Shown here: one piece after another, positions 7,753 through 35,038 of the stretch
Position numbering within the stretch: position 1 is the first letter of the stretch
How the letters are laid out: each line of letters begins with the position of its first letter
Source of the DNA: a virus
Taxonomy: Duplodnaviria; Caudoviricetes
Direction: 5' to 3' (one strand)
DNA length: 64,000 nucleotides
Virus record (IMG/VR): IMGVR_UViG_3300027754_000037
The notes under the pieces: model-generated
Database searches by the model: none
Told to the model about the DNA's origin: nothing
What the model saw: the letters and a program-made list of their open reading frames with translations, nothing else
Made by a program: the position numbers and the translations under genes

Positions 7753-7791
7753 TTAATTGTATTTTTGAAACGGAACTTCCGTATCACTTTG
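7753..7791 (+). promoter_or_regulatory. Early-promoter-like motif, copy P5
   Basis: TTAATTGTATTTTTGAAACGGAACTTCCGTATCACTTTG, with dyad ACGGAA-C-TTCCGT. Confidence 0.75.
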
Positions 7792-7818
7792 TAGAGAGTT
7801 AAACAAAAGGAGATTCAA

Positions 7819-8160
7819 ATGACCCAGATCAAGAACCTGACACCTCACGCAATTGTTTTGGTTCAAGGGGAAACCCAAGTTACCATCCAGCCGAGTGGGA
7901 CCGTTGCCCGTGTATCTACGGTTGCGGGGAGCAAGCTTGAAAGTTCCCTGCCTGTAGAATTGTGGTCAGCCAGCACTTTGGGGGAGGTTGTGGACCTGCC
8001 TTCTCCCGAAGAAGGTGTGATTTTGCTGGTGTCCAGCCTTGTGGCTGGTGCAGCGAAGAGGGAGGATGTTTACAGTCCCGGCACCGGCCCCAACGATGGG
8101 GCTGTGCGGAACGAAAAAGGCCATGTTGTGGGTGTCACCCGCCTCGTGCGAAGCACTTAA
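7819..8160 (+). CDS. NLTPH-family protein, copy 1; candidate Crn4-like ring nuclease
   Basis: IKNLTPHAI...PSGTVARV...LLVSSLV...VRNEKGHVVGV; family link recalled, not verified. Confidence 0.45.
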   Translation: MTQIKNLTPHAIVLVQGETQVTIQPSGTVARVSTVAGSKLESSLPVELWSASTLGEVVDLPSPEEGVILLVSSLVAGAAKREDVYSPGTGPNDGAVRNEKGHVVGVTRLVRST

Positions 8161-8284
8161 TTAAGGGGGCGACTCATGGTCAAAGAAATCGCCACGCTGG
8201 TCCTGATGCTCTTCACGGGCACAGGACCAAGTCCTAGTCTACATTACCCAAGCGAATCTGGGTCAATCGCTAGTCTCTAATTAC

Positions 8285-8320
8285 AGCCAGAGAGGGCCAC
8301 AGCCTTCTCTGGCTTTTTTT
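8285..8320 (+). terminator. Rho-independent terminator
   Basis: AGCCAGAGAGG-loop-CCTTCTCTGGCT followed by a T-run. Confidence 0.75.
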
Positions 8321-8366
8321 GCAATTTTTAGGACACTTTACCCACCCCAAACAAAAGGAGATTCAA

Positions 8367-9038
8367 ATGAACCAGATCAAGAACCTGACACCTCATGCGA
8401 TAACTTTGGTGCAAGGAGACACCCAAGTCACCATCCCGCCAAGCGGGACCGTGGCCCGTGTATCTACTTTTCCCGGCAGCTTGCTCGAAAGCTCCCTGCC
8501 TGTCGAAGTGTGGTCCCCTATCACTTTTGGGGAAGTGGTGGATCTGCCTCCCCCCGAAGAAGGGGTAATTTTACTGGTGTCCCACCTTGTGGCTAGTGCA
8601 GCCAAGAGGGCGGATGTTTACAGTCCCGCTTTAGCGTTTGCCCACTCCCGCCCCAACGATGGGACTGTGCGGGGGGAAAAAGGAGAGGTCGTGGGTGTCA
8701 CCCGCCTCGTGCGAAGTAGCCAACAGCAACAACCCAAGGAGAATGGAATGAATAAGCTAGAAAACAGAGTGTTTAAGTATTCCCTCATCCAAAGAGGAAT
8801 TAGTCTCCCACTAACCTCAAGTGAGTGGGAGAATTTGAGGAGAAGCTATGAAAGTGAACACCCGTATAGGGTTGATACGAGTTCCAGAACTTGGGGCTCC
8901 GGGGATTATGAGGAGACAACCCTTATTAGTAACATTTTCATTGATACTATTGATGGGGTTGAGTTAATTGCGACTCTCAGGTGTTTTTCAAAGGAAAAAA
9001 TAGAGGATAGGATAAATAGGCAAGAGGCAGGATTTTAA
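8367..9038 (+). CDS. NLTPH-family protein, copy 2, fused in frame to a second ORF (internal RBS and ATG at 8748)
   Basis: First ~120 aa closely match 7819..8160; no stop; AAGGAG-N6-ATG at 8736-8750. Confidence 0.65.
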   Translation: MNQIKNLTPHAITLVQGDTQVTIPPSGTVARVSTFPGSLLESSLPVEVWSPITFGEVVDLPPPEEGVILLVSHLVASAAKRADVYSPALAFAHSRPNDGTVRGEKGEVVGVTRLVRSSQQQQPKENGMNKLENRVFKYSLIQRGISLPLTSSEWENLRRSYESEHPYRVDTSSRTWGSGDYEETTLISNIFIDTIDGVELIATLRCFSKEKIEDRINRQEAGF

Positions 9039-9042
9039 TTAC

Positions 9043-9123
9043 CAAAATATTCCTGAATTAATTGTATTTTTGAAACGAAACTTCCGTATCACTATGAAGG
9101 GAGCCACTAGAGAGCAACCTTCA
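9043..9123 (+). repeat. Promoter (P6) + stem-loop module A (5'-shortened)
   Basis: AAATATTCCTGAATTAATTGTATTTTTGAAACGAAACTTCCGTATCACTA-TGAAGG..GAGCCACTAGAGAGCAA..CCTTCA. Confidence 0.85.
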
Positions 9124-10851: not shown

Positions 10852-11172
10852 ATGTATACTTTCAAGAAGGCCCAAGAGTTTCTCGGCAAGCGTCAGCAAA
10901 AGAAGCTGGCGCACAACACCACCATCCGTATCGAAGACGGTCTGATCAAGATCAAGTACCACGCCACCGACATCGTCACCATCACGCATGACGATGTCTA
11001 CACCCTGAACAATGGTGGTTGGTCAACCCCAACCACCAAGACCCGCATAAACAAGTTCAGCCCTGCCCGAATCTACCAGCAGGACTTCTGCTGGTACATC
11101 AAGGCGGGCGACAAGTCCCTGCCTTTCAACAACGGCTCTAAAGTAGATGTCAATGGTATCATACTACCTTGA
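10852..11172 (+). CDS. Conserved phage hypothetical (LNxGGWxTxTTKxRIN type)
   Basis: YHATDIV...TLNNGGWSTPTTKTRINKF; AAGGAG RBS. Confidence 0.7.
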   Translation: MYTFKKAQEFLGKRQQKKLAHNTTIRIEDGLIKIKYHATDIVTITHDDVYTLNNGGWSTPTTKTRINKFSPARIYQQDFCWYIKAGDKSLPFNNGSKVDVNGIILP

Positions 11173-32959: not shown

Positions 32960-33567
32960 TGCTCGTGCGACACATTATTTGGAATATCATTAATGACTAT
33001 TTTCTTAATATTAGGAAATTTCGTTTTAACCTCAGGAACAAATTCCTTAAATTTAAGTATTTGATCTGGTCTATCTTCGTGAATTTCAAGTGTTTTATAA
33101 TTTGGGTTCAAGAGACCCATAATAAAATTGAATTTAATTTCAAAAGTGCTGCTGCCAACAGTTCCCGGTTGGCCAGTCAGGAAATATCCGTCCATTTTGA
33201 GGTCAGCATGATCAAGAATCTGCGTAATCCTGCGACGAAACTGGTTGGGACGACCCGTCATCAACACAACGGTAGCTTCAGAATCACTTAGATCATTCTT
33301 ACAGCTTTCAACTGACTTGGTGATATACCATTCTGGTCCCGGCATTTCAGGAACCAAGGGAGGCGACAAAGTTTCTAGCCTGCCCCACCATCCACGATGA
33401 GGCCAAGGATATCCAGTTATATCTTTATATAAAACCTTACCAGTATCTGAGTCTGGGGAATGAAACAAAGTGCCATCGAAGTCGTAGATGATCAATCTAG
33501 ACACATTAACTGCGCTCTCGTTCAGTCTATTCTGGCAATATTCCTTAAATCTTGATATTTTAGCCAT
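32956..33567 (-). CDS. HAD-superfamily phosphatase (Swiss-army-knife RNA-repair type)
   Basis: IYDFDGTLFHSP, WWG, LMTGR, IHEDR. Confidence 0.75.
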   Translation of the reverse strand: MAKISRFKEYCQNRLNESAVNVSRLIIYDFDGTLFHSPDSDTGKVLYKDITGYPWPHRGWWGRLETLSPPLVPEMPGPEWYITKSVESCKNDLSDSEATVVLMTGRPNQFRRRITQILDHADLKMDGYFLTGQPGTVGSSTFEIKFNFIMGLLNPNYKTLEIHEDRPDQILKFKEFVPEVKTKFPNIKKIVINDIPNNVSHEH

Positions 33568-35038
33568 TTTGCTTGCTTCTTAAGTCATTCCAGCGGTTGG
33601 TCATCAAAGTGCGCTTAATGGCATCAAATTCGCCACCTACTGGGGTTCTGCCCATGAACTTGAGATAAAGAGGGTTGATCTTCCTTTTGCCGTCATCTTC
33701 GCTTTGATAGGGAGAAAGATCACCGCTGTCAAAACTGAGGAAGGTATCCACATCGGGATTGTGGGCCTTTGCCATCTGCATCCAATCCTTGATCTTGGAC
33801 CTAGTCAAACCGCTGTGGGTTTGAACCATATCATAAAACTGATCGGGATCAAACTTACCTTTCGACCATTGGAATAACTTAACCAAGTAAACCACATCGT
33901 TAGCTTCTTGTTTAGACCAACCGCCTTGCAATAGAATCTGACGAACATCGTCAGGATTGTTGTTGCGCATGGTCCAAGCAGCCGACATCCATCTGTCGTT
34001 CCTGAGTTCTTCCGGCAAGTCGTCTCCGCTAAATTCAATATTCGGGAAAATTAAATTCAACAAACCAGAATCTGAAGCTGTCTTCATATATTTTCTGGCA
34101 TCAGTATCTGGATTTTCTAAACCCTTGACAAACTCTGTCTTGGCACAGCCCGAGGGCAATTTCCAGTCTTTGTGAGCTTTGACGACACTCATATACTTGT
34201 CTGGAAGTGAATTGCCTTTTCCAAAACGATTGAAGTGGTTTAGCAAGCGAAATGCCGTCATGGGATCTTCCTTCATGCGATCACCAAACTTCTCTCCAAC
34301 AGCCTTGATCTCACCAGACTTCAAATGATTGGCACCGCCGAATGGATCAATCAGATCGCTGTTGGGACCATCTTCGTTGGTCAAGGGAATATACATGGAG
34401 TTGATGGTGAAGTCACGATTTGATGCATCTTCCTCGATGTTTGCTGCGCTCATGGCATCATCTGGTGTGAAGTTTTTGCTTTTGGGAGACTTAGAAAGTG
34501 TCGAAAGAATAAAGGGTTGGCCATTCACCTCAGCCGTAATCTCCATTTCCTTGCTTTTTTTGTCCCACTTGCTGGCATAGAAAACTTTGTTCTTATTGCC
34601 AGCAACAGGCAGGCTGGAATAATTCTTGATAGCTCCGTGGCTGGGTTTGACCTCTTTGAAACCATTTTGAGACAGAATCATTCTGATTTCGCTTGGTGTA
34701 GCATCTGTGACCAGATCATAGTTGTTGGGAGTTTTTCCCATGAGGTGGTCACGAACTGCACCTCCTGTCAAATACAGAGATTTCTTTTTGAGTTGAGGTT
34801 CAACTTCGCCTTTGTTTTTTTCAATCGTCGTGTAGCCAACAGTCACCTTGTTGGAATTTGTAAATGCCTTGACGACCTTGGCAAGATTGGCATGATTGGA
34901 CTTATCAATCATGAATGGCGTGAATTCCTTATCGCCACCTTCCTTCTTTTGGAGCTTGATTTTTGCGGTAACGCCTGTGACTGGCTCCGCTTCTTTTTCT
35001 TCTCTAAATTTCAAATAATCTGAGAAATAATGTGCCAT
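33560..35038 (-). CDS. Class II CCA-adding / poly(A) polymerase-like nucleotidyltransferase with degenerate motifs
   Basis: LYLTGGAVRDHLMG, PNNYD, EDASNRDFTINSM, DPFGG..HL, EDPMT. Confidence 0.8.
   Translation of the reverse strand: MAHYFSDYLKFREEKEAEPVTGVTAKIKLQKKEGGDKEFTPFMIDKSNHANLAKVVKAFTNSNKVTVGYTTIEKNKGEVEPQLKKKSLYLTGGAVRDHLMGKTPNNYDLVTDATPSEIRMILSQNGFKEVKPSHGAIKNYSSLPVAGNKNKVFYASKWDKKSKEMEITAEVNGQPFILSTLSKSPKSKNFTPDDAMSAANIEEDASNRDFTINSMYIPLTNEDGPNSDLIDPFGGANHLKSGEIKAVGEKFGDRMKEDPMTAFRLLNHFNRFGKGNSLPDKYMSVVKAHKDWKLPSGCAKTEFVKGLENPDTDARKYMKTASDSGLLNLIFPNIEFSGDDLPEELRNDRWMSAAWTMRNNNPDDVRQILLQGGWSKQEANDVVYLVKLFQWSKGKFDPDQFYDMVQTHSGLTRSKIKDWMQMAKAHNPDVDTFLSFDSGDLSPYQSEDDGKRKINPLYLKFMGRTPVGGEFDAIKRTLMTNRWNDLRSKQNG

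Follow-up and report, generated by a model that had tools for sequence, protein, structure and literature searches.

The tandem genes at positions 7819 to 9038 quite probably encode two ring nucleases of the Crn4 type, carried by a huge, uncultured T4-like phage. They are old paralogues, and the second has recently been fused to its downstream neighbor by the loss of a stop codon. Crn4 was first described in 2025 (PMC12830947). Phage-borne Crn4 is not new in itself, and the locus is a well-supported new addition to the published family. What it adds is modest, i.e., a clade-specific variant of the loop that bears the catalytic Arg and a natural fusion that can be dated, and no new kind of system is involved.

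The window, that is, the whole 64-kb stretch of DNA that was analyzed, corresponds to bases 64001-128000 of a 144-kb IMG/VR virus record, and all positions given here refer to it. The features of the locus are as follows.

7758 to 7787, plus strand: early-promoter-like motif heading the copy 1 unit, one of five motif copies in the window
7801 to 7821, plus strand: leader 1 with the ribosome-binding site (RBS) AAGGAG and the copy 1 ATG, identical to 8349 to 8369
7819 to 8160, plus strand: copy 1, Crn4-family ring nuclease of 113 amino acids (aa), with His10, Arg97, and an 11-residue Arg loop
8176 to 8280, plus strand: candidate small ORF of 34 aa with its own RBS, AAGGGGG (ORF list)
8285 to 8321, plus strand: intrinsic-terminator hairpin between the copies, with a 13-bp stem, a 4-nt loop, and U7 (terminator scan)
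8349 to 8369, plus strand: leader 2, identical to leader 1, with the copy 2 ATG (sequence identity)
8367 to 8720, plus strand: copy 2, Crn4-family domain of 118 codons, with His10, Arg102, and a 16-residue Arg loop
8721 to 8723, plus strand: lost stop, now a CAA codon (TAA in copy 1), where six copy-2-type relatives end
8721 to 8747, plus strand: former intergenic spacer, now the linker QQQQPKENG, holding the RBS AAGGAG at 8736 to 8741
8748 to 9038, plus strand: orphan ORF of 96 aa, the C-terminal part of the fusion
8367 to 9038, plus strand: complete fused ORF of 223 aa, found as the exact protein on five contigs
9063 to 9092, plus strand: following early-promoter-like motif, at the end of the unit (motif search)

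The long copy 2 frame is opened at TTG 8319 in ORF listings, and the homologous start is ATG 8367.

Assignment to the Crn4 family

The proteins of copy 1 and copy 2 were 77% identical (BLASTP E value, 7e-60), and their genes were about 82% identical at the DNA level over the stretch between the shared leader and the last codons in common, where copy 2 has a single 15-nt insertion. The leader, AAACAAAAGGAGATTCAAATG (21 to 22 nt), had exactly two matches in the 64-kb window, at 7801 and 8349, with 0 expected by chance. We thus confirmed the two close paralogues with identical leaders that had been noticed in an earlier reading of the same DNA (hereafter, the sequence-only reading).

In single-sequence searches with phmmer, one solved-structure entry, PDB 9r7b (Crn4b), was matched by both copies, with E values of 2e-6 for copy 1 and 4e-7 for copy 2. 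A profile of 121 homologues retrieved Crn4b with an E value of 1.9e-16 and Crn4a with 2.6e-14, and the NLTPH and V-R motifs were aligned. Besides, an AlphaFold model of copy 1 that was built on the homologue alignment (pLDDT, 96.8) matched 9r7b in Foldseek with a TM score of 0.76 and an E value of 1.4e-8. VIA-align gave a Z score of 13.8 for this model against Crn4b (rmsd of 2.5 Å over 108 residues) and 12.1 against Crn4a, and the next unrelated chain in the structural search against representatives scored 2.4. The fold evidence is that of the copy 1 model, and copy 2 is placed by its 77% identity to copy 1; single-sequence AlphaFold of the 223-aa fusion gave a pLDDT of 32 and no reliable model. 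Published Crn4 is a small homodimer with a previously unseen fold (Chi et al. 2025, bioRxiv 10.1101/2025.07.17.665281 / PMC12830947), composed of pairs of beta-strands and one short helix and unlike other solved structures (PMC12830947). The hairpin region, a feature of arm exchange in the Crn4 homodimer, is seen in the monomer model of copy 1. No Pfam (E ≤ 1) or NCBIfam model matched the Crn4 copies, and two PHROGs of unknown function did.

The residues required for catalysis were conserved. Activity requires His15 and Arg112 in Crn4a and the corresponding His17 and Arg103 in Crn4b, and Thr13 is dispensable (PMC12830947). His10 in both phage proteins aligns, within NLTPH, with the catalytic His of Crn4a and Crn4b, and His stands at this position in 275 of 276 homologues; Arg97 in copy 1 and Arg102 in copy 2 align with the catalytic Arg of the V-R motif, which is Arg in 274 of the 276. 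In Crn4a, a Ser91-Arg92 pair contacts the ligand, and Arg92 stacks on adenine (PMC12830947). The ligand-contacting Ser is present in both copies as Ser72 and was kept in 275 of the 276 homologues. At the position equivalent to Arg92, copy 1 has Ser and copy 2 has His; since Arg stands there in only 5 of the 276 homologues, this position does not define the family.

Membership of both proteins in the Crn4 family, in its short, Crn4b-like form, is therefore well supported by sequence comparison and by the modeled fold. Alignment of the profile to Crn4a needs a 12-residue insertion and that to Crn4b needs none; the copies are without the hairpin extension of about 10 residues found in Crn4a, and the best scores go to Crn4b. 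Like Crn4b (Hyphomicrobiales MBK8772583), the phage proteins show the otherwise unique fold, belong to the size class of 113 to 118 aa with the short hairpin form, and align at the NLTPH His and the V-R Arg with approximately 30% identity. The Arg loop of the phage clade (PGTGPNDGAVR; 16 residues in copy 2) is longer than that of Crn4b, and the Ser-Arg pair is replaced by Ser-Ser in copy 1 and Ser-His in copy 2. In addition, the phage genes do not lie beside CRISPR genes and form a diverged tandem pair, one member of which is C-terminally fused to an orphan. Crn4a (Actinomyces procaprae WP_136192672; PDB 9sma and 9qs9) also shares the fold, and equivalents of its His15 and Arg112 are present in the phage proteins; however, its longer hairpin arm is missing from them, and Crn4a occurs together with Csm6-2 and CorA in type III-D loci.

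Clustering at 90% identity gave 810 clusters for the Crn4 family, and 2088 representatives were matched at E ≤ 1e-3. Crn4-like genes were found by tblastn in seven distinct GenBank phages or viruses, and the Crn4 fold was common to seven BFVD viral models. Crn4b-type orthologues, which may act as anti-CRISPRs, have been reported from 11 phage genomes and 10 plasmids (PMC12830947). The sequence-only reading had named both the Crn4 family and its phage homologues. The profile and Foldseek searches that it had proposed, together with both catalytic residues, now back the family assignment, and the Crn4 paper itself proposes phage orthologues as anti-CRISPRs. It had also proposed a comparison with AcrIII-1; no match to PF08960 was found among the proteins (Pfam, E ≤ 1) or in the 144-kb record. 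The locus had no blastn match among the GenBank phages, and neither the conserved 3' end nor the leader was recovered by exact-pattern scans of viral and metagenome contig collections. Protein-guided contig scans for the fusion, the orphan, and copy-2-type genes revealed no close relative in these collections, from which near relatives may be missing.

Phage setting and expression signals

The Crn4 pair sits in the early region of the phage, amid small genes, and no known family was matched by its small neighbors. No type III CRISPR-Cas locus or effector was met beside the pair, whose surroundings are phage early genes. Because of this setting in a phage early region, the pair fits the published phage-borne group of Crn4 and not the host-encoded group. 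The window contains a T4-type baseplate wedge gene. Besides, a 106-aa early-region protein (10852 to 11172) matched Pfam Kyano_Gp96 (E value, 1.8e-9), and this sequence match ties the phage to T4-like cyanophage-type gene content. A 491-aa phage protein encoded on the minus strand (33560 to 35038) matched tRNA nucleotidyltransferase PHROGs (E value, 4e-28). The GC content was 56 to 58% in the Crn4 genes (GC3, 58 to 61%), 40% in the fused orphan, and 42% in the whole window.

In IMG/VR, the 144-kb record is labeled a provirus with 33% completeness. The same proteins are recorded on a contig of 240,945 bp, indicating that the phage genome is larger than 240 kb, and the 144-kb record probably represents part of a huge lytic-type phage rather than a provirus.

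A 30-nt promoter-like motif occurred five times in the window with 3 or fewer mismatches, at 7758, 9063, 9492, 10121, and 10518, with 0 expected. In the first unit, the motif is followed in order by copy 1, the candidate 34-aa ORF, and the terminator, whose fold z-score was -4.27. The 34-aa ORF has a short hydrophobic N-terminal stretch and gave no Pfam match. Because copy 2 lies directly 3' of the strong terminator and is without a full early-promoter motif, it is uncertain whether it is expressed. Upstream of copy 2, the stretch from 8315 to 8366 resembles a decayed early-promoter motif, which retains the TTTTTG.AA part and ACACTTT and is without the ACGGAA-C-TTCCGT dyad; the U run of the terminator overlaps this stretch.

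Divergence of the two copies and fusion of copy 2

Between copy 1 and copy 2, dS was 0.46 and dN/dS was 0.26, implying that both copies have long been kept under purifying selection. Metagenomic relatives of the copy 1 type were 83 to 95% identical to copy 1, and six metagenomic relatives (P0010, P0272, P0273, P0011, P0125, and P0278) were of the copy 2 type. Based on a maximum-likelihood tree, the copy 2 type formed one clade (SH-aLRT, 99), and both types jointly formed a clade with a support of 92. The Crn4 pair is thus old and diverged, and the earlier suggestion of gene amplification in progress was not borne out. It is also unusual, since ten other viral contigs each hold a single Crn4-like gene. 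That the two leaders are identical despite a dS of 0.46 suggests that the translation start has been under selection or that gene conversion has acted locally; relatives such as P0007 and P0279 show the same leader in their upstream translations.

What distinguishes the copy 2 clade is an insertion of 5 residues where the loop bearing the catalytic Arg begins. The resulting 16-residue loop, which has invariant Leu, Phe, and Ala residues and an extra Arg, was found only in the 11 copy-2-type sequences among the 276 examined, and the standard length of 11 residues was found in 215. In Crn4, the Arg loop lies above the ligand cavity (PMC12830947), and ring-size preference varies between members (PMC12830947; bioRxiv 10.64898/2026.09.16.751991). 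It is therefore reasonable to suppose that the two copies differ in substrate range, and they probably do so in substrate range or kinetics. In the lineage of P0125 and P0278, about 105 aa without any Pfam match are added at the N terminus of the copy-2-type Crn4, and within P0278 the 9-residue unit CGVRLSEPA occurs twice in tandem.

In each of the six copy-2-type relatives, the last residue is 118 and codon 119 is a stop; only the phage protein described here continues. Its Ser118 is followed by nine codons encoding QQQQPKENG, and AAGGAG lies 6 nt before the in-frame ATG 8748 of the 96-aa ORF. Two further observations of the sequence-only reading were hence reproduced, i.e., the loss of the copy 2 stop, with the frame open from CAA through the QQQQ linker to 9038, and the second ORF that keeps its own RBS and ATG. 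No indel is needed for the fusion, because a single T-to-C substitution at 8721 (TAA to CAA) suffices. A frameshift or indel origin was rejected, as this one substitution explains the read-through. The 24-nt spacer is free of stops and in frame, for which the chance was estimated at approximately 1 in 4 (1/3 for the frame multiplied by about 0.7 that 8 codons contain no stop). Five contigs from JGI/IMG and Logan, the longest being 240,945 bp, carry the exact 223-aa protein, and the contig counts of copy 1 were the same as those of the fusion protein. Judging from these comparisons, the fusion is recent and real.

In 5.8 billion clusters, the 96-aa orphan had a sole homologue, a stand-alone protein of 101 aa (P0271) with 86% identity. 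It had no match in Pfam, PHROGs, NCBIfam, PDB sequences, or the ESM Atlas, was unlike the C-terminal extensions of other Crn4 fusions and the Crn4 neighbors in 15 other loci, and had no second copy in the 144-kb record. C-terminal extensions of 80 to 240 aa were carried by at least 9 of the best 150 family matches. Several of the extensions found elsewhere in the family, which include those of P0206, P0168, P0140, and P0198, have zinc-ribbon-like Cys clusters, and one family member carries the C-terminal domain of the RNA polymerase alpha subunit (PF03118; E value, 3.6e-9). Since such extensions are common in the family, a C-terminal add-on is likely tolerated.

Natural fusions of the Crn4 domain are also known from TSR1 (TIR-SAVED-Crn4; bioRxiv 10.64898/2026.09.16.751991) and Csm6-2-Crn4. 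These proteins are host effectors with Crn4 as the C-terminal domain, whereas Crn4 is N-terminal in the phage fusion, whose partner is an unknown phage protein and whose origin is a single stop-codon change. In TSR1, the Crn4 domain dimerizes its fusion partner (bioRxiv 10.64898/2026.09.16.751991), and by analogy the phage fusion would be expected to dimerize the 96-aa part. Besides the fusion, a free 96-aa product is plausible in view of the retained RBS and ATG.

Two alternative explanations bear on this part of the locus. It is extremely improbable that the read-through arose through an error of sequencing or assembly and that a stop follows copy 2 in the true genome. The stop found at this site in every relative and the metagenomic origin of the assembled record would accord with such an error, but the identical 223-aa product on five contigs from two sources strongly disfavors an assembly artifact, and the change is a substitution in a nonrepetitive context and not a homopolymer indel. 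A somewhat more serious alternative, although still unlikely, is that copy 2 and its fusion are decaying, i.e., that copy 2 is a poorly expressed leftover in which the stop loss was neutral or slightly deleterious and gave no functional fusion protein. Against decay, a dN/dS of 0.26 over the long term and catalytic residues that remain intact show that copy 2 has been maintained; the translation leader is perfectly conserved despite the dS of 0.46, all 223 codons are open on the five contigs, and C-terminal extensions are a common feature of the family. The position of copy 2 behind a strong terminator with no promoter motif, the absence of the fusion from all six copy-2-type relatives, and the nature of the partner, an orphan with a GC content of 40% against 58% for the Crn4 part, speak for decay. 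Having been seen in this phage only, the fusion itself may be neutral or mildly harmful and not adaptive. The sequence-only reading had spoken of domain accretion in progress; this rests on a single recent stop-codon substitution, which may or may not be adaptive.

Proposed function of the locus

Published activity is that of Crn4a, Crn4b, and TSR1 only, and all characterized members cleave cyclic oligoadenylates. Crn4a cleaves cA3, cA4, and cA6, and Crn4b cleaves cA3 and cA4, in a metal-independent reaction that yields linear products with 2',3'-cyclic phosphate ends (PMC12830947). Furthermore, Crn4a relieves type III CRISPR immunity in Escherichia coli (PMC12830947), and cA3 is also a CBASS signal (PMC12830947). 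We propose that the two phage proteins, old paralogues of the Crn4 family, are probably small, dimeric, metal-independent phosphodiesterases, in which His10 would be the general acid and would act together with Arg97 or Arg102. They would open the cyclic oligoadenylates (cA3, cA4, and possibly cA6) of host type III CRISPR, as well as cA3 made by CBASS, and by such cleavage of the signal the host effectors would never be switched on. In the lineage of copy 2, the remodeled Arg loop, which is 5 residues longer, probably confers another substrate range or other kinetics. The T-to-C change, by turning the TAA of copy 2 into CAA, would let translation run through the 24-nt spacer into the next gene, giving the Crn4-orphan fusion and probably a free 96-aa protein from the retained RBS.

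It is quite improbable that the proteins have the Crn4 fold but serve another signal, either by degrading or sequestering other cyclic nucleotides, such as CBASS trinucleotides or Panoptes-type cA3 decoys, or in a role outside defense. The family far exceeds its CRISPR-linked set, with 2088 representatives and 810 clusters against 22 members in CRISPR loci (PMC12830947); moreover, the Arg92 equivalent is not conserved, the Arg loop of the clade is longer than that of Crn4a or Crn4b, and the CBASS signal cA3 is itself degraded by Crn4. However, the near-invariance of the catalytic His and Arg and of the ligand-contacting Ser argues for catalysis and against a sponge, and each characterized Crn4 member cleaves cyclic oligoadenylates.

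Starting from the preferred reading as ring nucleases, a bolder model can be drawn, although we consider it rather doubtful. The paralogues might divide the signal spectrum, or might form a heterodimer with an asymmetric site for the nonsymmetric cA3; the loop of copy 2 might handle a ring or nucleotide that is otherwise poorly served, and the fusion might tether a second anti-defense module. If this were true, the fusion would be a snapshot of the origin of a multidomain anti-defense protein.

The locus strengthens the case that huge phages invest in counteracting cyclic-oligoadenylate immunity, and it leaves the known picture of such counterdefense unchanged. Two diverged copies in one phage, which differ mainly in the catalytic-Arg loop, constitute a natural experiment and could reveal what sets ring-size specificity in the Crn4 fold. 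In addition, a dated gene fusion of one nucleotide offers a case for the gain or loss of function. Among other phage enzymes, the anti-CBASS phosphodiesterase Acb1, compared by its published description only, likewise degrades cA3 and other cyclic nucleotides and blunts signaling defenses, but it belongs to a different family and fold. AcrIII-1 (DUF1874 / PF08960) is likewise virus encoded, a His-dependent phosphodiesterase of cyclic oligoadenylates directed against type III CRISPR, which is the role proposed for phage Crn4; its fold, however, is unrelated, and it is specific for cA4.
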